This document shows positions 158 through 32,000 of a stretch of DNA of 32,000 nucleotides, piece after piece; position 1 is the stretch's first letter; each line of letters begins with the position of its first letter. A program made the translations under genes and the position numbers. Below the pieces are notes generated by a model. The model was not told the origin of the DNA and made no database searches. It saw nothing but the letters and a program-made list of their open reading frames with translations. Origin of the DNA: Nitrosospira multiformis ATCC 25196 (lineage in GTDB: Bacteria; Pseudomonadota; Gammaproteobacteria; Burkholderiales; Nitrosomonadaceae); the NCBI RefSeq assembly GCF_000196355.1, contig NC_007614.1, forward strand, positions 960,001 to 992,000. Direction: 5' to 3'.

Positions 158-733
158 GTGACTTGCTATTGTTTGGCCGCTGTAAGTGTATCCTTCGCCG
201 CGCTCGGGATTACGCCATGCTCGCAGGCTTCCGAACCCGTTTCAGCGGAACGTATCGATGCAGCGAGCATGCGGCGCATAGGCACAGTCGATGAGCGGTT
301 CCAATCTTACAACATCGAAATGATCGAAGTCATCGGTGGAAGATTCTGGAAGCCATACAGGGATATCGACCCTCTTCTCAAGGGGGGTCCTCCGGCGCAC
401 AATCGAAAAAGAATTCGACAACCCGTGGGTATGAACCCGAATCTGTACCAACAGCGTCCGCCGATTGACCTTGCCAACCTGCGCTTGCACAAGCTCGCAG
501 CCGCCTTGGGACCTGCTTATGTAAGAGTCACCGGAATGTGGGTCAACAGCGCCTACTTCCACAATTCCGATCAGCTCGCACCGAAGAGGCCTCCAAAAGG
601 CTTCAGCGGAGTATTAACCCGTCGGCAATGGAAGATCGCGCAGCGGAGACAAGGAGTGGGGGCAACTCGCCTATCACTATCAGAGAGGTCAACCAGACGG
701 TTGGTCCATGATGCAGACGGGAGACATTCGTGA
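158..733 (+). pseudogene. Truncated GH79 (heparanase/beta-glucuronidase-like) glycoside hydrolase N-terminal fragment
   Basis: GTG start with a signal-peptide-like N-terminus (..FAALGITPCSQA). DERFQSYNIEMIE ... LRLHKLAAALGPAYVRVTGMWVNSAYF parallels the first strands of the heparanase TIM barrel (human SPRFLSVTIDANL ... [22 protein letters not shown], recalled from memory). Family members are much longer. This ORF ends at 191 aa, before any catalytic NEP-type motif. Its last ~35 aa look out of family, and its stop overlaps the next gene's GTG (GTGA). Confidence 0.4.
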
Positions 734-1497
734 GTAATTTTATTGTTGTTGTCTTCCCGACGGAAAAACAGGCAGACGAGGGCAGGAAAGCGCTCAAGGA
801 ACTTCAGGAGGAAGGCAAGCTTACGATTCATGGGATGGCCATCATCACCAAGCAAACAGATGGCAAGGTCTCGATGAAGGACCAGGCTGACAAAGCGCCC
901 TTTGGGACGGCGGTAGGGACAGTCGTGGGTAGCCTTATTGGTTTGTTGGGAGGACCAGTGGGGCTTGCCGCAGGCGCAGCTGCAGGTGCTTTTTTAGGAT
1001 ACTCGGTCGATGCTTCCAATTACGGCTTGGGCACGGAGTTCGTTGATGAGGTATCACGGAATTTAACGACCGGAAAGAGCGCGCTGGTCGCCGAGGTTGA
1101 CGAGTATTGGACCGTACCGCTAGATTTGACGATGGAAGCGCTAGGCGGAATCATAGTTCGCCAATGGCGCCTGGATGTGGAACAAGACCTGATTCGGAAT
1201 GATGTCCGCGCTCGCAATGCCGAGCTTTCCCAACTCAAGGCTGAGTATGGGCAAGCCGAGGATGAGCATAAGGCGCGGTTGGAAGTCAGGATCAAGATTG
1301 TCGAGGCCAAACTGAAGGCCGCCTTGGAACGTGAAAAGGCCAAGGTGGAAGCGTTAAAACAGCAAGCAGACGCGAAGATCAAGGCCCTCCAGAAACAGGC
1401 TACAACGGCAAGCCCGGAAACCAGAAACATAATCGAGCAACGGGTCGCAGAAATTCAAGCGGAATCAGAGAAGCTTGCAAAACAGCATGGGACTTAA
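730..1497 (+). CDS. DUF1269/COG4803-like membrane protein with a C-terminal coiled-coil extension
   Basis: GTG at 730 with GGGAGA upstream. The N-terminus MSNFIVVVFPTEKQADEG is typical of the family. It has a glycine-zipper TM segment (GTAVGTVVGSLIGLLGGPVGLAAGAAAGAFLG). The C-terminal ~100 aa are K/E/A/Q-rich and heptad-like (..LKAEYGQAEDEHKARLEVRIKIVEAKLKAALEREKAKVEALKQQADAKIKALQKQ..). Confidence 0.7.
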   Translation: MSNFIVVVFPTEKQADEGRKALKELQEEGKLTIHGMAIITKQTDGKVSMKDQADKAPFGTAVGTVVGSLIGLLGGPVGLAAGAAAGAFLGYSVDASNYGLGTEFVDEVSRNLTTGKSALVAEVDEYWTVPLDLTMEALGGIIVRQWRLDVEQDLIRNDVRARNAELSQLKAEYGQAEDEHKARLEVRIKIVEAKLKAALEREKAKVEALKQQADAKIKALQKQATTASPETRNIIEQRVAEIQAESEKLAKQHGT

Positions 1498-1809
1498 AGC
1501 ACAGGCTCAGAATAGGTTCGTCTTGGCGTGATTGACCGAGCGTTTGAAAAACTGCCGACGAGGTAACTCACCACCTTCTTATTCATACAAGTCTCTTTCT
1601 GCGAGTGCTTGATTTGCTCGCTATTTTGTTGCGCTATTAGCAGACCCCTTTCCAAGGTGTGTCACCGAACGGACGGGAAGATGCCACGGCCCCTATAACT
1701 GCTTCCATCATTCAAGTTTCAACCGCGCTTCGATTTTGAGCTGAGCGTGACTTTAAAGTGCAAAGTAAGTGTGCTTTGCTACCTTCTACCATCCCAGGAG
1801 GAGAAAAAG

Positions 1810-2331
1810 ATGTCGGAAAAAGGGGAAATAGTTGTATTGGGATTCAGGGATCCCGAAGAGGCCGATCGCGTTTTATCCAGGCTTTATATGCTGCCCAGGG
1901 AATATCTGGCCGGTGAGGATGCGGTGGTCGTAGTGCGGGACGAGACAGGCTATGTTCATATCAAGCAAGGCAGCGATCTTGTCAAAACCGGGGCGAAGGA
2001 CGGCTTTCTTACCGGGAGTTTATGGGGCACGTTCGTCGGGCTGCTGTTCCTCGATCCCCTTATAGGATTCGCAGTAGGCAGCGCTCTGGGTGCCAGTACC
2101 GGTGCTCTGGCAGGCTCTCTGACTGATTACGGCATCGATGATGATTTCATCAAGTCGCTTGCTGAAACCTTCCCCAATAATTCGTCCGGGCTTTTCCTTC
2201 TTTTCCATAAGGCTCAGCCGGAGAAAGTTCTGGCGGAACTTTCGGGCGTGAAAGGCAAGGTACTTCGCACTTCACTCTCTCCCGAACAGGAAAAAAGGCT
2301 GCAGGAAGCTTTAAGTGGATCAGCCCCATGA
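1810..2331 (+). CDS. DUF1269/COG4803 family membrane protein (canonical length, 173 aa)
   Basis: ATG at 1810 is preceded by AGGAGGAG (1796-1803). The track ORF begins at 1747, but that extension has no RBS. The layout matches the family as I recall it: IVVLGFRD..EEADRV.., EDAVVVVRDETGYVHIKQ, a Gly-zipper (GFAVGSALGASTGALAGSLTDYGIDDDFIK), then GKVLRTSLSPEQEKRLQEAL. Confidence 0.78.
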   Translation: MSEKGEIVVLGFRDPEEADRVLSRLYMLPREYLAGEDAVVVVRDETGYVHIKQGSDLVKTGAKDGFLTGSLWGTFVGLLFLDPLIGFAVGSALGASTGALAGSLTDYGIDDDFIKSLAETFPNNSSGLFLLFHKAQPEKVLAELSGVKGKVLRTSLSPEQEKRLQEALSGSAP

Positions 2332-2425: not shown

Positions 2426-3778
2426 ATGAGCTCCTTCTTTTTCCCTTTGCGAGTGCCACGACACTTTGTACTAATTAGCATCATTGTCATTTTCTCTTTT
2501 TCTGAAGGCTGCAGCGAGCCCCCCGAGGAAAAGCCCCCACCCGTTGCGGAGGTCACTGCAGTCAGTATCGAGCCCAGAGATACGCCTATTGAACTTGAAT
2601 TCGTGGCGGAGACCCGAAGTTCCCGTCACGTAGAGATTCGCGCCCGGGTCTCTGGGTTCCTGGATAAGCGCCTCTACACGGAAGGCGAGGTGGTACAGGC
2701 TGGGCAGAAGATGTACCAGATGGATCGCAAGCCTTTCGAGGCTGCCTTGCAGTCGGCGGAAGGGCAACTCGCACAGCAGCAGGCACGGCTTCAGGTTGCT
2801 GAGGCAACGCTAGGCCGGGTAAGGCCGCTTGCGGAAAAAAATGCCCTGAGCAAAAAAAATCTTGATGACGCCACAGGAGCTGTGCAGCAGGCCAGGGCGG
2901 CAGTGCTTGCGGCAGAGGGAGAAGTTCGAACTGCAAAGTTGAATCTCAGCTATACAACGCTTCGTTCACCGCTCCACGGGCTAGCCAGTTTCAGTTTAAG
3001 GCATGAAGGGAGCTATCTGAGTCCGGGGGAAGGTGGGCTGCTTACCTATGTGGATCAGGTTAATCCTATCTGGGTCATATTCAGCGTCTCAGAAAACCAG
3101 ATGCTCAAGTACCAGAGTGAAATCGAAAGAGGCCTGCTCAAGTTTCCGCCTCTCAATCGTTTTGAAGTCCAGATCACCCTCGCCAACGGCGCATTGTTTC
3201 CACATGTGGGGCACATCGATTTCAGTGAACCTTCATTTTCCGAAGAAACTGGCACCTTCCTGGTTCGCACCCAGTTCATCAATCCCCAGGGAGTGTTGCG
3301 TCCAGGACAATTCGTGCGCCTCCAGTTGAAGGGAGCCGTGCGTCCCAACAGTATTCTGGTGCCGCAACGGGCGGTGCTGCAAGGGGCGAAGAGCCATTAT
3401 GTGTGGGTGATAAACAAGGAAGGCAAGGTTGACCGGCGCGACGTTGAAGTGGGGGACTGGCAGGGCGATGGGTGGTTTATAAATCATGGATTGGTGGCGG
3501 GCGAAAGAGTCGTGGTGGACGGGGCTGTCCGGCTCTCCCCTGGGGCTGCCATTAAAGTAATCAATGCACCAAGATTGCCGGAGGGTCAAACTGCGGGGAA
3601 GCCGGGAGGCCCTGGCACAGCTCCCGCAGCATCCATTGCACAGCCGCCCGAAGAAGCGTCAGTCAAGTCAGGGGATTTGCCCTCTACGCCCGATTCACAA
3701 GCAATCGGCCAGAAAAGCCGGGCATCCTCTTTCATAAAACCACAGTCCTCCACCCCGGAGGAAAAGCCGCCCGAATGA
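2426..3778 (+). CDS. RND efflux periplasmic adaptor (membrane fusion protein), probable lipoprotein, with a long Pro/Ser-rich C-terminal tail
   Basis: Signal peptide ending in the lipobox-like FSEGC. Adaptor hallmarks are present: IRARVSGFLDKRLYTEGEVVQAGQKMYQMD (lipoyl-like), an alpha-hairpin (EAALQSAEGQLAQQQARLQVAEATL..), LRSPLHG and LRPGQFVRL. It lies immediately upstream of the pump gene. The last ~70 aa are low complexity. Confidence 0.88.
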   Translation: MSSFFFPLRVPRHFVLISIIVIFSFSEGCSEPPEEKPPPVAEVTAVSIEPRDTPIELEFVAETRSSRHVEIRARVSGFLDKRLYTEGEVVQAGQKMYQMDRKPFEAALQSAEGQLAQQQARLQVAEATLGRVRPLAEKNALSKKNLDDATGAVQQARAAVLAAEGEVRTAKLNLSYTTLRSPLHGLASFSLRHEGSYLSPGEGGLLTYVDQVNPIWVIFSVSENQMLKYQSEIERGLLKFPPLNRFEVQITLANGALFPHVGHIDFSEPSFSEETGTFLVRTQFINPQGVLRPGQFVRLQLKGAVRPNSILVPQRAVLQGAKSHYVWVINKEGKVDRRDVEVGDWQGDGWFINHGLVAGERVVVDGAVRLSPGAAIKVINAPRLPEGQTAGKPGGPGTAPAASIAQPPEEASVKSGDLPSTPDSQAIGQKSRASSFIKPQSSTPEEKPPE

Positions 3779-3789
3779 CAGGCTAGTTC

Positions 3790-6700
3790 ATGAAGATTTC
3801 CCATTTCTGTATCGACAGGCCAGTCTTCGCCTCGGTGCTCTCCATCATCATCACGCTGGCAGGGGGAGTGGCGATGTACAACCTGCCCGTCGCACAGTAT
3901 CCCGAGATCACCCCCGTTGAAGTCTCGGTGACAGCCACCTACCCGGGAGCCACCGCCGAAGTGGCGGCGCAAAACGTCGCTGCCCCGATCGAGCAGCAGG
4001 TGAATGGCGCCGATAAGCTCATGTATATGACCTCTGCAAGTTCGTCAACTGGTGCCATGACGCTGTCAGTCTATTTCGAGATTGACGCCAACCCGTCGCT
4101 CGCCCAGGTGGAGGTGCAGAATCGTGTAAGCCTGGCGCTCCCGCAGCTTCCTGCCGCGGTGCAGAGGCAGGGGGTCGCGGTAAAGAAGCAATCCGCCTCC
4201 GTGATGATGGTCATCTCGGTCTTTTCACCGGATGAACGTTACGAGCCCGTCTATGTTGCCAACTACGCCAGCATTTTCATACTGGATGCGATCAAGCGCA
4301 TCCCCGGCGCGGGCCAGGCAACCGTCATGGGGACACCGGATTATGCGATGCGGATCTGGCTGAAACCGGATCAGATGGCGGCCCTTGGCATCACTGCTGG
4401 GGATGTGCAGCAAGCGGTGGCGGCACAAAACGAGCAATATGCCGTGGGTAGCATCGGCCAAGCCCCGACGGACCGTCCGGTGGAGCAGTCCTTCGCCATT
4501 ACCACCAAGAGCCGTCTGACCACCCCCGCCGAATTTGACAACATCATTATCCGTGCCGCCAGCCAGGGTGTTGCGATGGTACGGCTCAAGGATGTGGGCT
4601 ATGCGGAATTGGGTCAGAAGATTTACGCGGTTCGCAATACCCGCCAGGGGAAGCCCGCGACCGTGCTCGTAGTGTATCAACAGCCAGGGGCCAACGCGCT
4701 TGAGGTTTCAAAAGGCGTGCGGGCGACGCTGGAGGAGATGAAAAAGTCGTTTCCCCCAGGCATCGAGTATGAAATCACCATGGACACCACTGCATTCACG
4801 CGTGCTTCCATTGTGTCCGTGATCCAGACCTTCTTTGAGGCGCTGGTGCTGGTCGTAGTCGTCGTGTTCGTGTTTCTCCAGAATCTGCGCGCCACCCTGA
4901 TTCCGATCATTGCCGTGCCGATTTCCGTCATCGGGGCAGCCAGTGGCATGGCGGCCCTCGGTTTCTCACTTAACATGCTCACCCTGTTCGGCATGATCCT
5001 CACTATCGGTATCGTGGTGGACGATGCGATTGTGGTGGTCGAGGCAGTCGAGCACAACATGAGCAAATATGGCCTGTCTGCCCGTGATGCCGCTAAGAAG
5101 GCGATGGACGAGGTAGGCGGCGCGCTGATTGCCATTGTTCTGGTGTTATGTGCGGTGTTTGTTCCGGTGGGATTTATTCCGGGTATCACGGGACAGCTCT
5201 ACAAGCAGTTTGCAATCACCATTGCGATCTCTGTTGCGCTCTCCGGTATCGTGGCCCTGACATTGTCCCCCGCGCTTGCCGCCCTCCTGCTCAAACCTCG
5301 TCACGGCGAGAAACGGGGCTTTTTCAAATGGTTCGACACCTGGTTCGAGCGCATGACAGAAGGCTATATCCGCAGTGTGCAGCTCGCAATCAAGCGCTAC
5401 ATCGTAGCGCTCCTGCTGTTTTTCGGCATGATCGCTCTCGCCGTCGGGCTGTTCAAGCACATTCCTGGTTCATTCCTTCCCCCGGAAGACCAGGGTGTGT
5501 TGCTAGGCGCGGTATTGATGCCCGATGCTTCGGGGCTTGACCGTACTGGTGAGGTCAGCCGGCATGCCACCGAATACTTCATGAAGCATCCGGCCACAAG
5601 ATCCATCGTGGTCGTCGACGGCTTCAGTCTGCTCGACGGCCAGATGAAGAGCAATGCGTCCACATTCTTCGTAGGGCTCAAGGATTTCGAAGAGCGCTAC
5701 GCTGGCGATAATGCCGACACCCAAGGCGTGCCAGCCCTGCTGGCAGGCGCTGTAAAAGCTTTCTCCAATATACCCGGTGGCATCATTCTTCCGATCAATC
5801 CCCCCTCCATTCCTGGATTGGGGACAACCGGAGGGATGGAAATGTACATCCAGAGCAAGGGCGACAATGACAGCCAGCAGATTGCGCAGGTGATACAGGA
5901 ATATGTGAAACGAGCCCAGACGCGGCCCGAGTTGACGAATGTCACCTCGACCTACAATGCCTCGGCACAAGTGCTATACCTTGATGTGGACCGCGCAAAG
6001 GCGGAAACACTCGGTGTTCCGGTGGAGGAGGTATACAACTCCATGCAGACGATGTTCGGATCGCTCTATGTATCGCAATTCACAAAGTTTGCTCGCCTGT
6101 TCCAGGTAATTATCCAGGGCGAGCCCGCCTCGCGGATGAAACCGGAAGACATCAATTATCTGTATCTGCGCAGCCAAAATGGCAGCATGGTTCCACTTAA
6201 CGCGGTAGCGACCGTGCGTTTTGACCGGGCGCCGGACATCGTAACGCGTTTCAACAACTTTACCGCGGTAAAAATTACGGCCGAGGCCGCACCGGGTTTT
6301 AGCTCGGGGGAAGCCATCGCTGCAATGGAAGAAACTGCATCGGAAACGCTGCCCGCGGATTATGGTATTGCCTGGAGTGGCCAGACCTTCGAAGAGAAAA
6401 GGGCGGGGGGCTCATCCGTGCTGGTATTCGTCTTCGGCCTGATCATGGTTTTCCTCATCCTTGCCGCCCAGTACGAAAAGTGGACATTGCCCCTTGGCGT
6501 ATTGACAGCAGTCCCGTTTGCGCTGTTTGGCGCGCTGGTCGCTATTTTTCTCCGTGGCCTGAGCAATGATATCTACTTCCAGATTGGGCTCACAATATTG
6601 GTGGCGCTCTCCGCCAAGAACGCCATCCTGATTTTCGAATATGCAGTGATGAACCATGGGCAGGGGCAGTCCTTCTATGACGCCGCTGTCAATGCAGCGC

Positions 6701-7014
6701 GGGACAGATTGCGTCCCATCATCATGACCTCGCTTGCTTTCACGCTGGGCTGCGTTCCTCTTGCGATCGCCACTGGAGTCTCCGCCAACAGCAAGATTTC
6801 GCTCGGTACCGGTGTAGTTGGTGGCATGTTGGGGGCAACAGTCATCGCAATATTTTTTATCCCAATGTTCTACTGGGCAATCGAAACCTTGACGGCAAGG
6901 ATAAGAGGCAAAGACAGAACACCTCCTCCGACAACCAAAGCCGCGGAAAGCCAGCTACCCGCTGATCCAGGGGAAGGCAGGCAGGACGACTTGCCCAATG
7001 AAACCGTCCAATAA
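3790..7014 (+). CDS. RND multidrug efflux permease (HAE1 / AcrB-MexB family)
   Basis: 1074 aa. The N-terminus MKISHFCIDRPVFASVLSIIITLAG..YPEITP is the classic AcrB-family start. It has two large periplasmic loops and 12 TM-like hydrophobic segments, and sits between the adaptor and OMF genes. Confidence 0.95.
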   Translation: MKISHFCIDRPVFASVLSIIITLAGGVAMYNLPVAQYPEITPVEVSVTATYPGATAEVAAQNVAAPIEQQVNGADKLMYMTSASSSTGAMTLSVYFEIDANPSLAQVEVQNRVSLALPQLPAAVQRQGVAVKKQSASVMMVISVFSPDERYEPVYVANYASIFILDAIKRIPGAGQATVMGTPDYAMRIWLKPDQMAALGITAGDVQQAVAAQNEQYAVGSIGQAPTDRPVEQSFAITTKSRLTTPAEFDNIIIRAASQGVAMVRLKDVGYAELGQKIYAVRNTRQGKPATVLVVYQQPGANALEVSKGVRATLEEMKKSFPPGIEYEITMDTTAFTRASIVSVIQTFFEALVLVVVVVFVFLQNLRATLIPIIAVPISVIGAASGMAALGFSLNMLTLFGMILTIGIVVDDAIVVVEAVEHNMSKYGLSARDAAKKAMDEVGGALIAIVLVLCAVFVPVGFIPGITGQLYKQFAITIAISVALSGIVALTLSPALAALLLKPRHGEKRGFFKWFDTWFERMTEGYIRSVQLAIKRYIVALLLFFGMIALAVGLFKHIPGSFLPPEDQGVLLGAVLMPDASGLDRTGEVSRHATEYFMKHPATRSIVVVDGFSLLDGQMKSNASTFFVGLKDFEERYAGDNADTQGVPALLAGAVKAFSNIPGGIILPINPPSIPGLGTTGGMEMYIQSKGDNDSQQIAQVIQEYVKRAQTRPELTNVTSTYNASAQVLYLDVDRAKAETLGVPVEEVYNSMQTMFGSLYVSQFTKFARLFQVIIQGEPASRMKPEDINYLYLRSQNGSMVPLNAVATVRFDRAPDIVTRFNNFTAVKITAEAAPGFSSGEAIAAMEETASETLPADYGIAWSGQTFEEKRAGGSSVLVFVFGLIMVFLILAAQYEKWTLPLGVLTAVPFALFGALVAIFLRGLSNDIYFQIGLTILVALSAKNAILIFEYAVMNHGQGQSFYDAAVNAARDRLRPIIMTSLAFTLGCVPLAIATGVSANSKISLGTGVVGGMLGATVIAIFFIPMFYWAIETLTARIRGKDRTPPPTTKAAESQLPADPGEGRQDDLPNETVQ

Positions 7015-7031
7015 GTCCCCGGGAGACTGAC

Positions 7032-8546
7032 ATGCGATCCCGGCTGACACTACTTGCATTCCTGCTTCCCCTGGTTCTTGTACTGCAAAGCTGCATGTTT
7101 GGTCCAAATTACCGGCGGCCAGAAATAGAAACAATGGAGAAATACCGTTTCGGAGAGAAAGTCGCGAGAGATATTGCCGATACCGCCTGGTGGGAGCAAT
7201 TCGGAGACCCCATTCTCAATGAACTGATCAGGATCGCGCTTGTTGAGAACAAGGACATACGCATCGCCACTGCGCGTATAGAAGAATTCCAGGGCCGCTA
7301 TGGCGCCACTCGCTCGGAACTGTTTCCGCAGATCGGGGGAGATGCCTCAGCGGAGAGGTTGCGCTCGACAGCCTTCGTGTGGCCAAGAGGTCTGGGGGGC
7401 ATTGACCCTTACTATAGCTATTACCAGGTATCCATAAATGCGAACTGGGAAATTGATATCTGGGGCCGCATCAGGCGTCTCTCGGAGGCGGCGCGCCATC
7501 AGCTGTTTGCCTCCGAGGCGGCGCGACGCGCTACGATATTGACCCTGGTCACCTCGGTGGCCTCATCCTACATCAATCTCCTGATCCTGGATCGGCAACT
7601 GGAGATCGCGCGGGCTACTGCAGCCACTCGAAGGGACACGCTGGAAGTGTTCCGGATGCGCTACGAAGGTGGCGTGATTTCACAACTGGAGCTTGCTCAA
7701 ATTGAGTCACAATATGAAACCGCAGTAGCCGCCATACCCCCGCTTGAATCCAGCATCGCCCAGCAGGAGAACGCACTCGCAGTATTGCTCGGTCGCAATC
7801 CCGGTCCGATTGCACGGGGCCGCGAACTCGCAAAGCTCGAACTTCCCATGGTATCCGCCGGTCTTCCATCGGAACTCCTGATGCGACGCCCTGATCTCCG
7901 TGAGGCCGAGCAGAACCTGATCTCGGCCAATGCCCAAATCGGTGCTGCCCGTGCCCTTTACTTCCCGCGAATTTCACTCACAGGCGTGCTGGGAGTCGCG
8001 AGCACCCAGCTTGCAACCCTGTTTACCGGACCAGCCTACATGGCAGCATTTGGCGTACTGACTTCGGTACCGATCTTTACCGCAGGAGGCATCGCAGGCC
8101 AGGTGAAACAGGCGGAAGCACGGCACGAACAGGCACTCGTAGGTTACCAGCGCGCAATCCAGATTGCGTTTCGGGAAGTTGAGGATTCCCTCATAGCCGT
8201 GCAGAAGAATCGAGCGGAACTGGCAGCTCAAACCCGGCGGGTGGAGGCGTCGCGCACGTATCTCGAGATGGCGCAGCTGCGTTATGACGAAGGCTATATC
8301 AGCTTCATCGAAGTCCTTGATGCCCAACGCACCCTCTTCGAAGCTGAAACCACCCAGGCTCAAACCCGGGGACGGGTATTCAATTCTCTTGTCGATCTCT
8401 ATAAATCGCTCGGAGGTGGATGGGTGGTGGAGGCTGACCGTATCAGAGGACAAATGGAAACGGGCAGGCAGGAAAACAAGTCCACACCCAAAGATGGAAA
8501 CGTGATGGATGCAGCGGATCATGAACGAACAAAGACCGAACCTTGA
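7032..8546 (+). CDS. RND efflux outer-membrane factor lipoprotein (NodT/OprM family)
   Basis: Lipobox LVLQSC followed by GPNYRRPE, the NodT-family signature right after the lipid-modified Cys. It has two TolC-like repeats and is the third gene of the operon, with a 17-nt gap. Confidence 0.9.
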   Translation: MRSRLTLLAFLLPLVLVLQSCMFGPNYRRPEIETMEKYRFGEKVARDIADTAWWEQFGDPILNELIRIALVENKDIRIATARIEEFQGRYGATRSELFPQIGGDASAERLRSTAFVWPRGLGGIDPYYSYYQVSINANWEIDIWGRIRRLSEAARHQLFASEAARRATILTLVTSVASSYINLLILDRQLEIARATAATRRDTLEVFRMRYEGGVISQLELAQIESQYETAVAAIPPLESSIAQQENALAVLLGRNPGPIARGRELAKLELPMVSAGLPSELLMRRPDLREAEQNLISANAQIGAARALYFPRISLTGVLGVASTQLATLFTGPAYMAAFGVLTSVPIFTAGGIAGQVKQAEARHEQALVGYQRAIQIAFREVEDSLIAVQKNRAELAAQTRRVEASRTYLEMAQLRYDEGYISFIEVLDAQRTLFEAETTQAQTRGRVFNSLVDLYKSLGGGWVVEADRIRGQMETGRQENKSTPKDGNVMDAADHERTKTEP

Positions 8547-24583: not shown

Positions 24584-24621
24584 ACCTGAAAATGAATGAA
24601 TCTGACAATGAATAAACCTGA
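24566..24621. repeat. 16-bp tandem repeat, about 3.5 copies, spanning the prpB stop and prpC start
   Basis: GAACCTGAAAATGAAT at 24566-24581 and an identical copy at 24582-24597. GAATCTGACAATGAAT at 24598-24613 has 2 mismatches. A partial AAACCTGA follows at 24614-24621. Each unit carries an ATG and a TGA/TAA. Confidence 0.85.
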
Positions 24622-25771
24622 TGGAAGCACTGTGAGCACTGCGCCGAAGAAAAAATCTGTGGTGTTGTCCGGGGTGCGGGCTGGCAATACGGCCATTTGC
24701 AGCGTGGGGCGTACAGGGAACGATTTGCATTATCGCGGCTATGACATTCTGGATATAGCGGAAAGCAGCGAATTTGAAGAAATTGCCTACCTGCTGGTGT
24801 ACGAAAAGTTGCCCACGGTGGCCGAGCTCGCCGCCTACAAGGAGAAACTGGAAAAGCTGCGCGATCTGCCGGCCAGGGTAAAAACCCTGCTGGAGACGAT
24901 ACCTGCAAGCGCTCATCCCATGGATGTGTTGCGCACAGGAGTTTCCGCGCTGGGTACGGTGCTGCCGGAAGCCGAGATACATACGGTGGAGGGTGCGCGG
25001 GACATCGCAGACCGGCTGCTGGCCTCCATGGGCTCCATGCTGCTGTACTGGTACCACTATTCTCATCACGACCGCCGCATCGGACTGGACTCAGATGACG
25101 ATTCCATTGGCGGACATTTTTTGCACCTCCTGCACGGCAAGCCACCCCCCCAATCCTGGATAAAGGCAATGCATGCCTCCCTGATCCTGTATGCCGAGCA
25201 TGAGTTCAATGCCTCCACCTTTACCGCTCGAGTGATTGCAGGGACGGAATCGGATTTCTACTCCGCCATAACGGGTGCTATCGGCGCGTTGCGCGGCCGC
25301 AAACACGGGGGTGCCAATGAGGTTGCATTTGACATCCAGACACGCTATCGCAGCCCGGATGAGGCCGAGGCGGACATTCGCCGTCGAGTGACGAACAAGG
25401 AGATCATCACCGGTTTCGGCCATCCCGTCTATACCGCTGGCGACCCGCGCAACCGGGTAATTCGCGAAGTGGCAAGGAAGCTGTCGGCCGAGGCAGGAGA
25501 CATGCAGATGTTCAACGTGGCCGAGCGGTTGGAAACGGTGATGTGGAGCATCAAGAAGATGTTCCCCAACCTGGACTGGTACTCTGCCGTGGGTTATCAC
25601 ATGATGGGCATCCCCACGGCCATGTTCACCCCGCTGTTTGCGATTGCCCGCACCAGCGGCTGGGCTGCCCACATCATCGAGCAGCGGATGGACGGAAAGA
25701 TTATTCGCCCTTCGGCGAATTACATCGGACCGGAAGAACGGGAGTTTGAGCCGATTGAGGCGCGCAGATAG
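24596..25771 (+). CDS. prpC: 2-methylcitrate synthase
   Basis: 391 aa, citrate-synthase family: ..[10 protein letters not shown].., [28 protein letters not shown]. It follows prpB. The start may be ATG 24596 or 24608; both lie inside the tandem repeat. Confidence 0.92.
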
Positions 25772-26246
25772 CTGCTAGGTAAAGCAGATCAGTGAAGATT
25801 TAACTTTATAGATACGCACGACTTCGAAATCCAAAATATTCTTCGCGTAAGTTGCGGTACTATCCAGAGTCGCCTTCAGCAACAACGCTGTGTCAGGTAC
25901 ACCGGATAATCGGGATCATAGTGAATTCGCATCTCCAATACTCCTCAGCCTACGGGTTTACAGTCACTAAAATTTCCCAGCTCAGCACGACGTAATCTGG
26001 TATCGATTCGTACTTTTGCCTGAATATCGTAAGCAGGCAAACCAGTCAACATAGATTTCCGCTTCAATAAGCTGGTTCACTCCCGTCGTGATGACAAGAT
26101 AAATGGGAGGCATCAAAGCTCGATCAGGAAATGAACTATATTGATATTGGTAATGCTTTACCGTGTGGAAGATAGCGGTGGGACGTCTTGTTCTGCCATG
26201 GCTAAAAGTATCGCTGTATGCTCACTGGTCCCCTCAGGAAGCAGAG

Positions 26247-27602
26247 ATGCAACTGAACCCATCATTGATCCCTCATTCGTCAGAGCAGCACGTTGACTGG
26301 GAGAAAGCGCTGCATGGCGGCAACGATGCGCTGCTGACGCAACTTGCAGCCGATGATGATCCCGCTGCTGCTCTTCTGGAACTTGAAAGCTACATCAATG
26401 GGATCTACCGCGGCAGCCCGTCTCCCTTATCCAAACCGCTGCCGGATATCCGCTTGGAGGTGCGACGGGCGCTACCCTATGTGGATGAAATTCGGGATCG
26501 CCTGGGATGGCAGGTGCGGGATTTCGATCTTGGGTTGCTGCGCTTGATTCGTGGCTCGAGCACGTTATCGCCCGTGCTGGGGGCAGGGGTCTCGATGGAT
26601 GCAGGGGCGCCCTCCTGGCCCGAACTGGTGCGTTTGATGCTGGAGGAAACGCTCGACAAGGGTCTGGAGTTCTACGAGTCCGTTCCCGCCGCTGACAATC
26701 CGGCTCAGCCGCCTATCGAGTTTCTTCCCGACGGCACGGTGCGCACGGGCGGAACCGGAACCTGGCGTTTCGAGCAACGCGTCAGCGAAGTGAAGCGCTA
26801 TACGGCTGAGCAGGAACAAACGGCGAGGAACGTCCTTGCAGAGGTCAAGGCCAAAGGTTCTTCAACCGATGTCGAGACGCTCATGCACGGGGCGCAGGTC
26901 TGCTACGATCTTTGCGGCCAGCATCTTTTTCGTCTGCTCACGAAAATCATCTATACACGTGCGAAAGAGCCAAGCGAAGTCCATCGGGTTATTGCCGAAC
27001 TGGCGCAGGCGCAAGAGGTACCCGTGCGCGGCCCTGGTTTGTTTCCCGGATGGGATTCAATTATCACCTACAATATCGATGCACTAATGTCGGAAGCGCT
27101 CGCGGAGCAGAAAATACCGCACGCTGCCTGGGCGATGAAGGGTGACAAGCTGCGGGGCAATCCGGATGAACTCGCTCAGAAGAGTTCATGGCATGAACCT
27201 ATCTTTCATCTTCACGGTTTTTCGCCGCGGCGGCTGTTCATGATCACGAATGTGCGCTTTGTATTTTCCACTTCTCAGTACCTCACGACGTACAAAGGGC
27301 CGCGATCAAGGATATTGGAAGCGGTCTACGACGAATTTCTGGCGAATCCTGTGCGCATTGCGCTTTATATAGGGTGTTCGTTTGCCGATGAAGCGATGAA
27401 CGGCCTCCTGCGTGAGGCCTTCGCGGAATACCCGGGGCGCTATCACTATGCATTGCTGAAATGGCCGCGAGACAGGAAAGGAAAGGAGCCGGACAGGAGC
27501 GAGATCGCCGCCGAGTCCGCAAAATATCTCGAGTTTGGGGTGCGGCCGATTTGGTTCGATGATTTCGCCGAATTACCCGGGTTGATCCGGCAGCTGCAAT
27601 GA
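26247..27602 (+). CDS. SIR2_2-type (defence-style SIR2-like) domain protein, 451 aa, no recognisable partner
   Basis: ATG at 26247 with AGGAAG 5-6 nt upstream; the track ORF starts at GTG 26163 without an RBS. Four ordered blocks are present: LGAGVSMDAGAPSWPEL, ITYNID, IFHLHGF and LYIGCSFADE. These match the blocks I recall for Pfam SIR2_2 (G-A-G-x-S...P-x-W NAD loop, catalytic Asn, catalytic His). No zinc-ribbon Cys pairs are present. Confidence 0.72.
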   Translation: MQLNPSLIPHSSEQHVDWEKALHGGNDALLTQLAADDDPAAALLELESYINGIYRGSPSPLSKPLPDIRLEVRRALPYVDEIRDRLGWQVRDFDLGLLRLIRGSSTLSPVLGAGVSMDAGAPSWPELVRLMLEETLDKGLEFYESVPAADNPAQPPIEFLPDGTVRTGGTGTWRFEQRVSEVKRYTAEQEQTARNVLAEVKAKGSSTDVETLMHGAQVCYDLCGQHLFRLLTKIIYTRAKEPSEVHRVIAELAQAQEVPVRGPGLFPGWDSIITYNIDALMSEALAEQKIPHAAWAMKGDKLRGNPDELAQKSSWHEPIFHLHGFSPRRLFMITNVRFVFSTSQYLTTYKGPRSRILEAVYDEFLANPVRIALYIGCSFADEAMNGLLREAFAEYPGRYHYALLKWPRDRKGKEPDRSEIAAESAKYLEFGVRPIWFDDFAELPGLIRQLQ

Positions 27603-27709
27603 CGTGCACCGCGATTTGCGATAACTATGCTGGAATCATTGGGGTCCTTTCTATTAATAGGCGCCTCTGAATATCGATCAGTCCTCGGATTTTCCGGCTT
27701 TCTGAGAAA

Positions 27710-28378
27710 TTAACCCCCGGAAGGTTGAATGCCTCTCAGTATCTTGCCTGGCGGTGGTGGGGGAGGAACGCCGGGCGGTGGGGGAGGAATGCTCACTGTT
27801 CCCCGTGGCGCGGGCGGCGGAGGTGGATAGGAAGAGGAAGAAGGCGGATAAGAAGGGGAGGTGTAACGACCTCCTGGATAGGTGTTCGTGACCTGGCCGT
27901 ATACCGGTACCTGGTGTCCCTTGGCGTACATGCACTGCACGTAGGCGGCGTCATAACGCTCCTGGGAAATCGAACCCGAGGCTCCCGCGGTACCGATGCC
28001 AGCCAGGCTTCCTGCCAACGCGCCGGTACCGGCTCCAATCGCTGCGCCGTGTCCACCTCCCAAGGCAGCGCCAGCCGCAGCCCCTACTCCAGCCCCTACG
28101 GCGGCGCTTCCCACCCCGCTGGATACCGAAGCGCGGCTCGGCGTATTCCCTCCCACCTGATCATGGGCAAACTGCCGGCAGAGGTAGTCGTCGTAGCGGA
28201 ACTCGTCGAAGCTTCTTCCTGTGCCCGGCAGTGCCATCATGCTCGGACCCGTTGGCATACTGACGCATGCAGTGAGCGAAGTCAGCGCGAGTAGCGGGAG
28301 GAATAACTTCGTCCAGCGCGCTTTATCCGAGCCCGGGGATTTCCTGAATATGGATTGGATCATGATGATTTGGCTCAT
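27710..28378 (-). CDS. Glycine-zipper lipoprotein with a C-terminal polyproline tail
   Basis: ATG at 28378 overlaps the upstream gene's TGA (ATGA). It has a signal peptide with lipobox LTSLTAC and a Gly-zipper (GVGSAAVGAGVGAAAGAALGGGHGAAIGAGTGALAGSLAGIGTAGASG). A conserved-looking ERYDAAYVQCMYAKGHQVP block follows, then ..PPSSSSYPPPPPAPRGTVSIPPPPPGVPPPPPPG. The upstream 139 codons of the track ORF are Arg-rich and overlap the neighbouring gene in another frame. Confidence 0.65.
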   Translation of the reverse strand: MSQIIMIQSIFRKSPGSDKARWTKLFLPLLALTSLTACVSMPTGPSMMALPGTGRSFDEFRYDDYLCRQFAHDQVGGNTPSRASVSSGVGSAAVGAGVGAAAGAALGGGHGAAIGAGTGALAGSLAGIGTAGASGSISQERYDAAYVQCMYAKGHQVPVYGQVTNTYPGGRYTSPSYPPSSSSYPPPPPAPRGTVSIPPPPPGVPPPPPPGKILRGIQPSGG

Positions 28379-28860
28379 TGACCGGGTTGAGGGGCTACCT
28401 GCAGCCAGCCTTCCGGGCAATTTTTGACATAGGGATAATAGCCTTCGGGATTGCGGCAATAATGCCAGTAACTGGCCGCCGGCGGCTGGGGTTGGGATTG
28501 GATCACCGGCGGCTGCTGAATGTAAACAGGGGGCTGTGCCGGCGTTACAACCACTGGCGCCAGAGGGGGATACGCATAGCCGGGCGTGTAGCCATACCAG
28601 GGGGTAAACCCGTAAGCCGGATAGCTGTAGGGCGCGTACCCGTACGGCGGCCCGTAGCGGTAATAAGGTGGATAGTAGGGTCCTCTGCCGTAGTAACCCA
28701 GGCCATAGCCGCCCAATACCCCCAGTCCGAAAGCCAATCCGGGGCCGTGCCAATGGCCCCCGTGACCTCCGTAATGACCTCCTCTGTCTGCCCATGCCGC
28801 AGTTGCCGAAAACGATCCGAGCAAAATGAGGAAAGCATATATGAATCCCTTTTTTTTCAT
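28375..28860 (-). CDS. Secreted His/Gly/Tyr/Pro-rich low-complexity protein with a C-terminal CxxPxGYYPYVxxCPxGW motif
   Basis: ATG at 28860 (MKKKGFIYAFLILLGSFSATAAWA) with GGAG 6 nt upstream. After the signal peptide come GGHYGGHGGHWHG, a G/Y/P-rich region and a P/Q/V-rich linker. It ends in SYWHYCRNPEGYYPYVKNCPEGWLQVAPQP. Confidence 0.65.
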   Translation of the reverse strand: MKKKGFIYAFLILLGSFSATAAWADRGGHYGGHGGHWHGPGLAFGLGVLGGYGLGYYGRGPYYPPYYRYGPPYGYAPYSYPAYGFTPWYGYTPGYAYPPLAPVVVTPAQPPVYIQQPPVIQSQPQPPAASYWHYCRNPEGYYPYVKNCPEGWLQVAPQPGQ

Positions 28861-29302
28861 GCCAGTCTCCACTTTGCGATTCCAGCCATTGAAATTACTC
28901 CTTCCTTTCCATGTATGATTTGGACCGTTCCATGAGCAAAAAAAATTCTGGCTGGATCGATGTTAATACGGATATAACGCATCACCGGCACTTTGGTTGT
29001 CATACTTGAATAATCTCTGGCAAGTCTGGATTTTCCGCTTTTTTGAAGCAAGAACGGTAGAGCTTCGAGTTCCGAGTGGAGTAGCTGGGCGTGCTTCGTC
29101 GTTAAATCGAAATAGAGAGGGTTTCCCGCTTTCGCGGGCATGACGGCATCTCGATAGACCGATGCCCGGGAGCCCTTCGGTTTTGGTCCTGACTGCTAAT
29201 TTATTCCGGACAGAAGGGTGTTTTTGCAGGAAAGACGGTGCCAAGAAGGAAAAACGGCTTCTTCTTTCGCCGCTCAGGCTCTCCTTGTTGGAGTGCAGGC
29301 TC

Positions 29303-29308
29303 TATAAT
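29303..29308 (+). promoter_or_regulatory. Consensus -10 hexamer TATAAT 8 nt upstream of the prpD ATG (possible leaderless or near-leaderless transcript)
   Basis: TATAAT at 29303-29308 and ATG at 29317. No purine-rich SD lies in between (ATGGGCCC). There is no convincing -35 at 17-nt spacing and no TG extension. Confidence 0.25.
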
Positions 29309-29316
29309 ATGGGCCC

Positions 29317-30768
29317 ATGTCATCCGCGTCCTCCCACATTCGTCCCCAGCCTGACCAGGTTCTGGTCGACATTGCAGATTATGTGGTGGGACGGGATATT
29401 CAAAGCGATCTGGCTTACGCTACCGCCCGTCACTGCCTGATGGATTCCCTGGGGTGCGCCATGGAAGCGCTTGCGTATCCGGCCTGCACCAAGCTGCTTG
29501 GGCCGCTCGTGCCCGAGGCTGCCGAATCTGAGGGCGGCGCGAGGATTCCGGGTACCCAGTTTCAGTTCAATCCGGTGGAAGCGGCATTCAATATCGGCAC
29601 GATGATTCGCTGGCTCGATTTCAACGATACCTGGCTGGCTGCGGAATGGGGTCATCCATCGGATAACCTGGGGGCCATACTGGCTGTAGCCGACTGGCTT
29701 TCGCGCAGTGCCACGAGCGGGAGGCGGCGGCCGCTTATGCGCGATGTGTTGACCGCGATGATAAAGGCATACGAGATCCAGGGTTGCTTCGCTTTGGAAA
29801 ACAGCTTCAACAGGGTGGGCCTGGATCATGTGGTGCTGGTTAAAGTTGCCTCCACAGCCGTCGTAACGCATCTGCTGGGCGGCAGCCGTAAACAGATCGT
29901 CGATGCGCTTTCCCAGGCGTGGGTGGACGGGCAGGCACTTCGCACGTATCGTCATGCCCCCAACACCGGCTCGCGCAAATCCTGGGCTGCGGGGGATGCC
30001 ACCAGTCGTGCGGTATGGCTTGCGCTGATCACACTCAAGGGGGAGCCAGGCTATCCTTCAGCGCTTACCGCGAAAACCTGGGGGTTCTACGATGTGCTGT
30101 TCAAGGGAGAACCTTTCAAATTCCAGAGGCCCATCGAACGATGGCATTCCTATGTAATGGAGAATGTGCTGCTCAAGATTTCGTTCCCCGCCGAATTCCA
30201 CTCCCAGACAGCGGCGGAGTGTGCGATGCAGCTATACCCGCACGTGAAGGACCGGATTGCCGATATCCGGAAAATAACGATCCGCACCCACGAGGCCGCG
30301 ATTCGTATCATCGACAAGAAGGGGCCGCTCAGCAGCCCGGCCGACCGCGACCATTGCATGCAGTATATCGTGGCAGTGGCCCTTATTTTCGGCAGGCTTA
30401 CCTCTGCCGATTATGAGGATGGCGTGGCCGCCGACCCTCGCATAGATGCGTTGCGGGACAAGATAATCTGTATTGAGGATCCGTGCTTCACAAAGGATTA
30501 TTACGATCCCGAAAAACGCTCCATCGCAAACGGTCTCACCCTTGAATTCAGGGACGGCAGTAAACTGGAGGAAGTGGTGGTGGAGTATCCCATCGGCCAC
30601 AGGTTGCGTCGAAGCGAAGGCATTCCGCTACTGGAAGAAAAATTTAGAATCAATCTTGGGCGGCGTTTCCCCGCCCAGCAGTGCGAGGCAATCATGAATG
30701 CCTGTCATGATCAAGGCAGGCTGGAAGCAATGCCGGTTCACGAGTTTATCGATCTGTTTGTGATTTAG
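29317..30768 (+). CDS. prpD: 2-methylcitrate dehydratase
   Basis: 483 aa, collinear from the first residues with E. coli PrpD as I recall it (M-S-..-I-R-P-..-D-..-V-D-I-.-D-Y-V; [21 protein letters not shown]; [25 protein letters not shown]; EYPIGH). Confidence 0.93.
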
Positions 30769-32000
30769 GTGAGCTGGTTGCTGCTTCCGGATGTGTAACT
30801 TGAGGCGGGGTGAGTTCCCTTTCGGTGAAGTCGTGACCGCTCCCCTGCCGGGAAGAGTTTGTATCCAGCAGTATCCGGAGAGTATTGAGCCTCAATCTCC
30901 ACGAAGCGACGGTTGCCGGGTCTGCTGACAGGGCGGCTAGCAATTGTTCCACTCCGTCGGTATGGGAGGTGTCGCAGGTGGAGAAGAAACAGCGAAGTTC
31001 CTCACTGTTCGTGATGCCTGTCCGCTGCGCGAAGCCGGGATAATCTTCGCGCAGATGAGAAGCCAGCCATGCCTGATCGATCCATTGCTTCAACTGGCTA
31101 TAGCTGAAGCAGGTGCGTATCGCGAGATCCACAGGGTCAGCATTGCTGAGGTTTTCGATATTATCGAACCCTTCCCGCTCCAGTCTCAATTCGTGCGAGT
31201 AGCTCATTCCTGCCAGCATGGAAAGCGGCAGCGCGCGGTAGCTCATGGTGGGAATGATTCCTCTGGTCAGTTTAATGACGATCCGCTCAATTCCGAGTGC
31301 AGTCCGTTTCGGATAGAAACCGAGAAAGAAAGCAACAAGAGGCAGGAGGCTCAATCTGGCAGGCAACGGGACTTCCTGTTTCGAAAGGAGTTTTTCGCTA
31401 TTGCCTGATCTTTCAGGAGATGTGGTTTCTCCGGATTCCTCACCGGTAGAAGGCGTTGAGGGTGGGGGGAGCGCGGGTGTCGTGGCATTCACGTCGGAGG
31501 GCGCAGCGGTTGAGGGGGCAGTTGAGGACACATTCACATCGAGTTCGTGTGGCAGCAGCAGATCGAACGCAAAGGAGAGCACCAGCGCCAGCAGGCTTGC
31601 GACGATCATGCGGATAGCGCCATCGACGAACGTATTGGAAGTCAGGTCCATGGTGAAGTAGGCACGGACGACAGAGCCGATGAAATAGACGTAAGCGCCA
31701 AGGAATCCGAACTGGAAAGCCGTCAGGTTGCGGACCAGGTGGGAATAATAGGAACCATTACCCGTTTCATACAGTTCCATGAAGGGGCCCATCATCAACA
31801 TGTTCGCCCCGAGACTGAAATCCACCCCAAGTTCCGCAGACGAGGAAACGGGCTTGAACAGCAGCAGAATGGAACTACCGAGCAGCACGACGACCGTGGT
31901 CAGGCAGACGCTTCCCCTGTAAGTGCCAAAGGAAGCCCGTCGTCCCATCCGCTGACGGATTTCGCCGCGCCGCTCAGGTGGAACGTCGCGGTATAAACGC
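30746..32000 (-). CDS. Uncharacterised multi-pass membrane protein with a Pro/Ser/Thr-rich linker and a C-terminal soluble domain; possibly 5'-truncated by the window edge
   Basis: The track ORF is 30746..31948 (400 aa), but the frame stays open upstream to position 32000, so the true start may lie outside. There are about 3 TM segments, a linker ([39 protein letters not shown]) and another TM segment. The following ~200-aa domain has an HhH-like stretch ([40 protein letters not shown]). The 3' end overlaps the prpD 3' end by 23 nt. Confidence 0.6.

Follow-up and report, generated by a model that had tools for sequence, protein, structure and literature searches.

Between prpC and prpD in Nitrosospira multiformis ATCC 25196 lies a forward-strand gene for a standalone protein of the SIR2_2 (SIRim) type, which we analysed within a stretch of 32,000 nucleotides (contig NC_007614.1, positions 960,001 to 992,000; hereafter the window, in whose numbering all coordinates are given). 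Upstream of this SIR2 gene are sdhCDAB, mdh, prpB and prpC; downstream are two minus-strand genes for secreted or lipoprotein products, followed by prpD. The longest open reading frame (ORF) of the region opens at a GTG codon at 26163, but the supported start is the ATG at 26247, because the ribosome-binding site AGGAAG precedes it and the N-termini of 55 homologues align there. A site of the AGGAG type is found at the equivalent place in homologues. Ratios of non-synonymous to synonymous substitution rates (dN/dS) ranged from 0.07 to 0.13 in six comparisons, compared with 0.10 for prpD, and the gene is intact, single and functional. Scanning the long gap upstream of it with Rfam revealed no RNA element above chance, and neither a consensus sigma-70 promoter nor a convincing terminator was found.

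Judged from its sequence, the product is a SIR2_2/SIRim enzyme carrying the Asn/Asp/His catalytic set of antiphage nicotinamide adenine dinucleotide (NAD+) hydrolases (NADases). An earlier reading of the same DNA, made from the letters and their ORFs alone (hereafter the sequence-only reading), had assigned it to this fold from four ordered motif blocks, and the assignment holds: Pfam model SIR2_2 (PF13289) matches residues 271-419 with 74.6 bits against a cut-off of 24.5 (E = 1.1e-20), and the classical sirtuin model PF02146 gives no match to the 451-aa product at E <= 0.1. The GAG, Asn and His codons singled out in these blocks lie exactly where they had been placed (Table 1). All four blocks, the last of which (LYIGCSFADE) spans residues 372-381, are invariant or nearly so in an alignment of 55 family members, in which G112-A113-G114, N276, D278, H323-G324, G376-C-S-F-x-D381 and M384-N385 never vary. 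Searched against PDB sequences, the family profile matched nothing but ThsA proteins and, from a SIR2-like system, its SIR2. The GAG region aligns to ThsA 'GAGLS...SW.EL', while 'TYNfD' falls on T110-N112-D114 of BcThsA and 'hlHGY' on its H152, making N276 equivalent to N112, D278 to D114 and H323 to H152. In ThsA, the substitutions N112A and H152A abolish NADase activity, and N112A also abolishes Thoeris defence (PMC7272460). By analogy, we infer NAD+ glycohydrolase activity for the Nitrosospira protein. The protein contains just three cysteines (219, 223 and 377), none of them in a CxxC pair, and therefore lacks the CxxC...CxxC zinc ribbon, as had been supposed. A zinc module is a requirement of protein-deacylating sirtuins. 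SIR2_2/SIRim proteins form the immune, zinc-less branch of the sirtuins, members of which are typically activated by a change in multimerisation (10.1101/2024.09.18.613514; PMC12700824).

The structure predicted by AlphaFold2 with the family alignment (predicted local distance difference test score, pLDDT, 93.6; predicted template-modelling score 0.90) consists of a four-helix N-terminal unit, strand β1 with the GAG helix, a β-module whose four strands span residues 140-183, a helical module and the remainder of the Rossmann fold, with an NAD pocket. A Foldseek comparison of this model with the PDB pointed to antiphage NADases, the top 50 matches listed all being chains of ThsA, KomC (Kongming) or DSR2, with E-values of 2e-9 to 5e-6, a probability of 1.00 and template-modelling (TM) scores that, normalised on SIR2-only chains, reach 0.73. 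Neither these top 50 nor the PDB sequence matches include a CobB or SIRT chain. Gathering score, catalytic positions, and Rossmann and helical subdomains without a zinc module all agree with membership of SIR2_2.

Two regions of the protein had been set apart in the sequence-only reading, one of about 95 residues before the first block and an insert of about 155 residues between the first and second blocks; their sizes are nearer to 105-110 and 145 residues, respectively. Part of the supposed insert, the β-module, is truly additional. It matches no Pfam family, not one of its 47 positions is conserved in at least 90% of sequences, and its length ranges from 10 to 69 residues across the family, making it a candidate specificity or surface element. 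About half of the insert is ordinary, since the following helical stretch, with 16 of 76 positions conserved and outside the reach of the Pfam SIR2_2 model, would correspond to the usual SIR2_2 small subdomain, judging by its position in the model and the published description of the fold (PMC12700824).

The N-terminal region had been said to belong to no nameable family, and this description stands. The domain has no Pfam match and no sequence-profile match in the PDB, and its best Foldseek match in the PDB is insignificant (E = 1.1), although it is modelled with a pLDDT of 90.4 when taken alone. Its helices comprise residues 15-24, 27-36 and 39-55, followed by a helix of about 40 residues (65-103) that leads into strand β1; W18, N51-G52-x-Y54, R83, G87, R91, D94 and R102 are conserved. 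A profile of the domain retrieved only 81 matches from 1.84 billion representative proteins, almost all of them proteins of 410-470 aa with the domain at the N-terminus, or fragments thereof. We therefore rejected the idea of a shuffled sensor module, the domain being private to the SIR2 family in that collection, and set aside five multi-stretch matches (P0158, P0170, P0173, P0179 and P0190) as repeat or coiled-coil artefacts. Two exceptions to the usual architecture were seen: a fungal-looking protein with an N-terminal extension of 330 aa (P0137), and a locus (P0127; L156, 2-2156) where the N-terminal domain is preceded by an in-frame fusion to an ORF for an nSTAND1 NTPase that runs open to the edge of the contig, probably a STAND-SIR2 fusion in decay.

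From 5.8 billion proteins, our search yielded 132 relatives, mostly of 430-455 aa, with a query coverage of 93-100% and identities down to about 42%. Bacterial sources included Burkholderiales, Piscinibacter, Accumulibacter, Aminicenantes, Acidobacteriota, Blastocatellia, Deltaproteobacteria and Anaerolineae, and fungal members were found on chromosome-scale contigs of the Ascomycota Penicillium, Aspergillus, Fusarium, Corynascus and Cladosporium. The fungal proteins are near-full-length orthologues of the bacterial ones (42-51% identity), and in a rough neighbour-joining tree they group as a single clade whose sister is the bacterial sub-clade containing the Nitrosospira protein. On this sequence evidence the gene has been transferred horizontally, both among distant bacteria and to Ascomycota, and its distribution is patchy.

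Comparison with related loci supports the earlier suggestion that the gene sits in an insertion between prpC and prpD, and shows the insertion to be lineage-specific (Table 1). The window prpD is 94% identical to that of N. multiformis Nl12 and, among 80 species or loci with a related prpD, the SIR2 gene was found only in Nl12 (98% identity) and was absent from the other 79. The universal synteny with prpC and prpD that would have spoken for a housekeeping role is thus not seen across these loci. A further related genome (L001, 82% identity) has the same order of genes, mdh-prpB-prpC-SIR2-lipoprotein-lipoprotein-prpD. In the Nitrosospira metagenome-assembled genome (MAG) L020 the site is empty, with a gap of 204 bp between prpC and prpD, and in most other related prpD loci that show both genes, no more than a few hundred bp separate the two. 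Alignment of the empty site with both window junctions revealed no target duplication or repeats. Another Nitrosospira MAG (L019, 7989-9784) carries different cargo at the junction, genes for a diacylglycerol-kinase-like protein and a metallophosphoesterase, which identifies the junction as a variable spot.

Table 1. Features of the SIR2 gene and its surroundings (window coordinates; residue numbers refer to the 451-aa product)
Feature	Coordinates	Strand	Details and evidence
Lineage-specific 3.5-kb insertion	25772-29316	.	Between prpC (24596-25771) and prpD (29317-30768); contains the SIR2 gene and two minus-strand genes
Unique intergenic stretch of lower GC	25772-26086	.	From prpC stop to conserved leader; variable spot
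Conserved leader patch of about 85 bp	26087-26170	+	Includes AATGAACTATATTGATATTGGTAA; common only to three Nitrosospira copies
Ribosome-binding site AGGAAG	26236-26241	+	5 nt ahead of the ATG; read directly from the sequence
SIR2_2/SIRim-type standalone protein, complete coding sequence	26247-27602	+	451 aa plus stop; ORF listing, Pfam, homologues, dN/dS, AlphaFold
Four-helix N-terminal domain, family-private	26247-26561	+	Residues 1-105; alignment, model, profile searches
Strand β1, GAG dinucleotide-binding loop and next helix with invariant PSW motif	26562-26663	+	GAG codons 26580-26588
Hypervariable β-module	26664-26804	+	Residues 140-186; four antiparallel strands, no cysteines; DSSP on the model
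Helical small subdomain	26805-27032	+	Residues 187-262; helices 187-251 in the model
Rossmann-fold catalytic core	27033-27599	+	N276 27072-27074, D278 27078-27080, H323-G324 27213-27218 (H323 27213-27215), G376-D381 27372-27389
Gly-zipper lipoprotein gene	27710-28300	-	Within the insertion
Gene for a 165-aa Pro/Gly/Tyr/His-rich, secreted-looking protein	28375-28872	-	Within the insertion; no family

The DNA upstream of the gene differs between strains. The leader patch is 78-86% identical to the copies in Nl12 (L018), L001 and L002, while the DNA further upstream is unrelated in each genome: 316 bp unique to the window, a 134-aa orphan ORF in L001 (7274-7678), and the tail of an IS3-type (rve) transposase with a 221-aa orphan ORF in Nl12 (6-392 and 456-1121). 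The patch probably represents a promoter or operator region, although no consensus sigma-70 promoter was detected there. The 134-aa and 221-aa ORFs match no Pfam family, nor do small ORFs downstream of the gene in another homologue locus (L098), and all were rejected as partners as they are not common to different genomes. Over 26301-27500, the SIR2 coding sequence is 97-100% identical in nucleotides to that of Nl12 (synonymous divergence, dS, 0.089), whereas identity is about 85-95% in the flanking genes, namely those for the lipoproteins, prpD and the membrane-protein gene (dS 0.315 for prpD), and 57-69% in the leader. This suggests a recent allelic exchange of the SIR2 gene alone between Nitrosospira strains. 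Only the SIR2 coding sequence travels, upstream leaders not being common to different contexts. The two minus-strand genes accompany the SIR2 gene in Nitrosospira only, are missing at the empty site and are about 91% identical to their Nl12 counterparts, compared with 97-100% for SIR2; because of this restricted co-occurrence and lower identity we regard them as neighbours rather than partners.

Elsewhere in the window, a gene on the minus strand downstream of prpD (30746-31948) encodes a 400-aa multi-pass membrane protein that is kept in Nitrosospira (61-88% identity) and whose heliorhodopsin-like matches are sub-threshold only (E of about 0.01-0.02, far below the cut-offs). Two adjoining genes for DUF1269/Gly-zipper membrane proteins (730-2331, plus strand) lie upstream of an RND efflux operon (HlyD-AcrB-OEP, 2426-8546).

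Homologues with 72-80% identity occupy unrelated contexts with no prp genes nearby, including a locus with a TcA-like toxin gene, an Aminicenantes locus with glycosyltransferase and aminotransferase genes, a planctomycete-like locus and one with a MASE1-PAS histidine kinase. More distant homologues are located after zapA (Accumulibacter), beside a LanC-like gene (Piscinibacter) or between ABC transporters. A 73%-identical homologue (L003, 1-10208) lies between an ORF for a 2,940-aa TcA-like toxin and a 212-aa ORF matching TcA_TcB_BD, and looks as if it had been inserted into or just after the Tc toxin gene. We clustered the ORFs within ±9 kb of 77 loci into 48 context groups, in which only two neighbour families recurred, ABC ATPases in 4 groups and short-chain dehydrogenases in 3; seven contexts inspected singly likewise had no family in common beyond these. 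Since no family beyond these generic ones recurs, the gene has no conserved partner. Around the window copy, Pfam and PADLOC detected no SLOG, TIR, HerA or Argonaute neighbour, in agreement with its earlier description as an orphan. Among 140 neighbour ORFs taken from 24 contexts, PADLOC gave only a few defence-model matches, to mad2/3/8 and AriA (twice each) and to PDC-S02, PD-T4-6 and mad6 (once each). One of these neighbours is a Ser/Thr kinase gene (L109, 6050-7936) directly upstream of a 67%-identical SIR2 homologue, matching PADLOC PD-T4-6 and mad6 (E of about 1e-89).

The statement in the sequence-only reading that no described architecture matches the protein went too far, as a comparable one has been reported under the name sole-Sir2. 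This standalone protein, about 440 aa long, has at its C-terminus a Sir2 domain similar to the SIR2 of DSR2, and its N-terminal part is unassigned; it converts NAD+ to ADP-ribose in vitro, and E. coli is protected by a homologue against T2 and T4 (10.1101/2024.12.27.630466, a 2024 preprint). It was put forward as a candidate CRISPR-supervised immune system, being found inside type I-C cas operons, and the named loci of other cas-embedded systems are mostly from Neisseria (10.1101/2024.12.27.630466). Compared by description only, sole-Sir2 is the closest described architecture, alike in size, standalone state, unassigned N-terminus and C-terminal SIR2. In contrast to sole-Sir2, no cas genes are present among the window ORFs examined. 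No Neisseria name occurs among the named homologues of the Nitrosospira family, and the ten most divergent full-length carriers of its N-terminal domain that were looked up are metagenome proteins. The two may be analogous in architecture and not members of the same family.

Among characterised systems, Thoeris ThsA (PDB 6lhx, 7uxt, 8wc0 and 8bto) is the best match in both sequence and fold, at an identity of only 14-16%. Both proteins have the GAG loop and the Asn/Asp/His catalytic residues, lack a zinc module and are similar in length. However, ThsA has its SIR2 domain at the N-terminus, followed at the C-terminus by a signal-binding domain of the SLOG (or Macro) type, and needs the TIR protein ThsB, whereas the extra domain of the Nitrosospira protein is N-terminal, helical and unrelated to SLOG, and no domain follows the SIR2 core. 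No thsB-type TIR gene lies beside the SIR2 gene in the window or recurs in the 48 contexts. DSR2 and DSR1 are likewise single-gene systems whose SIR2 domain superposes on ours (TM up to 0.73 on the SIR2 fragment), yet they are about 1,000 aa long and have their SIR2 at the N-terminus and a large C-terminal α-solenoid sensor that binds the phage tail tube protein, while the 451-aa Nitrosospira protein is less than half that length, has its SIR2 domain at the C-terminus and contains no α-solenoid sensor. KomC (PDB 8zsf and 9xvc), another high-ranking fold match, is a filament-forming SIRim NADase of about 270 aa that works with KomA, KomB and a dITP signal; no such partners occur at the Nitrosospira gene. 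Nor does the window or the neighbour census contain the HerA or Argonaute gene of SIR2-HerA (Nezha) or SPARSA, and the STAND NTPase and sensor domain of Avs5 (SIR2-STAND) are absent from the window protein, an nSTAND1 fusion occurring only in the degenerate homologue of L156. As the defining domain or partner of each was tested for and is absent, the gene is not a member of Thoeris, DSR1/2, SIR2-HerA, SPARSA, Avs5 or Kongming. Vertebrate FAM118A/B and the eukaryotic sirims (SIRal/SIRanc) are likewise SIR2_2 proteins without a zinc module, of 350-450 aa, but they form a different clade with no detectable relation in the N-terminal domain. They derive from an ancient transfer from bacteria and depend on self-assembly for activity (10.1101/2024.09.18.613514; PMC12700824).

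Taking these results together, we favour, with about even confidence, the reading that the gene encodes a self-contained NAD+-hydrolysing effector of conflict or stress. The protein would be held inactive until a trigger released hydrolysis of NAD+ to ADP-ribose and nicotinamide, and the resulting depletion of NAD+ would stop growth in the manner of abortive infection or of a stress switch. Judging from ThsA, Avs5, KomC and FAM118B, activation would most likely proceed through a change of oligomeric state, with the conserved N-terminal helical domain acting as an assembly or autoinhibition element and the variable β-module conferring trigger specificity. The fold class, the accessory behaviour of the gene, the STAND-fused relative and the sole-Sir2 precedent support a role in defence; an anti-phage role in particular is a possible one, suggested by fold-class analogy, patchy horizontal distribution and one published precedent. 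A number of observations weigh against the effector reading. PADLOC gives only weak partial matches, to LmuA (3e-6) and ThsA (4.8e-6; GAG block, residues 111-134), none of its models covers the protein, and no NCBIfam model matches it. Absence of the family from plasmids, phages and viral contigs (counts below) and the host-like base composition of the gene also weigh against this reading, as strong purifying selection does against an anti-phage role. No viral relative of the fold was found, no mobile-element borders were found around the insertion, and the STAND-fused copy is degenerate, with GAG changed to GPG, HLHG to HLYG and a frameshift in the β-module. The kinase upstream of one homologue is the sole defence-model match that was localised (20 large neighbour ORFs scanned) and may be generic, the Pfam profile of the 140 neighbour ORFs is mostly housekeeping, and the association of the family with defence islands is weak. 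Some SIR2_2 proteins, such as FAM118, have weak NADase activity alone (PMC12700824). The strong conservation of the N-terminal domain from bacteria to fungi differs from what is usual for a phage sensor engaged in an arms race, and the existence of a fungal clade likewise counts against an anti-phage role. Because it is so conserved, the N-terminal domain more likely binds a conserved cue or drives self-assembly than recognises a phage protein. The wider proposal that this is a cross-kingdom SIRim family of soil bacteria and Ascomycota, whose N-terminal domain senses a conserved cellular cue or drives self-assembly instead of recognising phage, seems to us unlikely as it stands.

Several of the same observations would also fit an NAD+-dependent enzyme outside immunity, for example an ADP-ribosyltransferase, a producer of an NAD-derived signal, or an enzyme of stress or NAD homeostasis with a conserved substrate, encoded by an ordinary, patchily distributed chromosomal gene kept in soil bacteria and fungi. 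Purifying selection on the gene is strong, at the level of housekeeping prpD; conservation extends over the full length, N-terminal domain included, between bacteria and Ascomycota; and searches of 72,556 plasmids, 50,697 phages and 2.9 million viral contigs found no family member. The G+C content (GC) of the gene and that of its third codon positions (GC3) equal those of host genes, and the gene was not recently acquired from a donor of different composition. Its neighbourhoods are mostly housekeeping and, as FAM118 illustrates, a SIR2_2 protein may have little NADase activity and serve in other roles (PMC12700824). Nevertheless, we consider a non-immune enzyme rather unlikely: the structural neighbours among the top 50 listed are all antiphage NADases, sister Nitrosospira and 79 of 80 related prpD loci lack the gene, near-identical copies turn up in phyla and contexts that are unrelated, the site is a variable spot adjoining an insertion sequence element, and no conserved substrate or partner gene lies nearby. 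A further idea, in which the gene would encode a housekeeping CobB-like sirtuin serving the flanking methylcitrate-cycle genes, draws on its position between prpC and prpD on the same strand, and on the established link between cobB and propionate catabolism in Salmonella, where CobB deacylates and activates the propionyl-CoA synthetase PrpE. We rejected this highly improbable idea, which is largely refuted by the presence/absence and fold evidence: related prpD loci, other Nitrosospira included, lack the gene in all but one of 80 cases, the 72-80% homologues have no prp genes nearby, and the protein has neither a PF02146 match nor a zinc module, nor any CobB or SIRT structure among its PDB sequence or fold matches. 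Moreover, 476 bp of strain-specific DNA separate it from prpC, and two opposite-strand genes from prpD. Alternatively, the protein could be the effector half of a split system that is not self-sufficient, its N-terminal domain receiving, like the SLOG domain of ThsA or the KomBC complex, a nucleotide signal from a sensor encoded elsewhere or by the invader. ThsA and KomC, which have the nearest folds, are effectors activated by a signal (10.1101/2024.12.20.629578), the conserved R83, R91, D94, R102, N51 and Y54 on the N-terminal helices could form a ligand site, and CRISPR-linked sole-Sir2 copies alone gave E. coli no protection (10.1101/2024.12.27.630466). Yet within ±9 kb in the 48 contexts there is no recurring TIR, cyclase, kinase or other candidate, the N-terminal domain was never found on other effectors and bears no similarity to SLOG, Macro or other known ligand domains, and unlinked partners are unusual for horizontally mobile defence genes, which makes a split system quite unlikely.

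For the self-contained effector that we favour, the effector class and the single-gene logic are already known, whereas no description exists of the N-terminal domain, of the β-module, of the cross-kingdom family or of its non-island context. SIR2-type NADases are a major effector class of prokaryotic immunity, and links between their descendants in eukaryotes and innate immunity are only just emerging. Nearly all characterised members rely on a recognisable sensor domain or partner gene. A compact, well-folded SIRim of 451 aa, with no additions but the four-helix domain and the β-module, conserved from Nitrosospira to Penicillium and located outside defence islands, is a tractable minimal system for the off/on control of the active site, and the gene tests whether membership of the SIRim clade predicts an immune role. 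Current concepts are unchallenged unless the non-immune or the conserved-cue reading proves true. If the latter is true, the protein would be a one-protein NAD-depleting switch with a trigger logic unlike that of every characterised SIR2 defence system, and in fungal hosts it might not be anti-viral at all. Few candidate genes for defence or conflict have been noted in ammonia-oxidising bacteria, and the SIR2 gene would be one of them.

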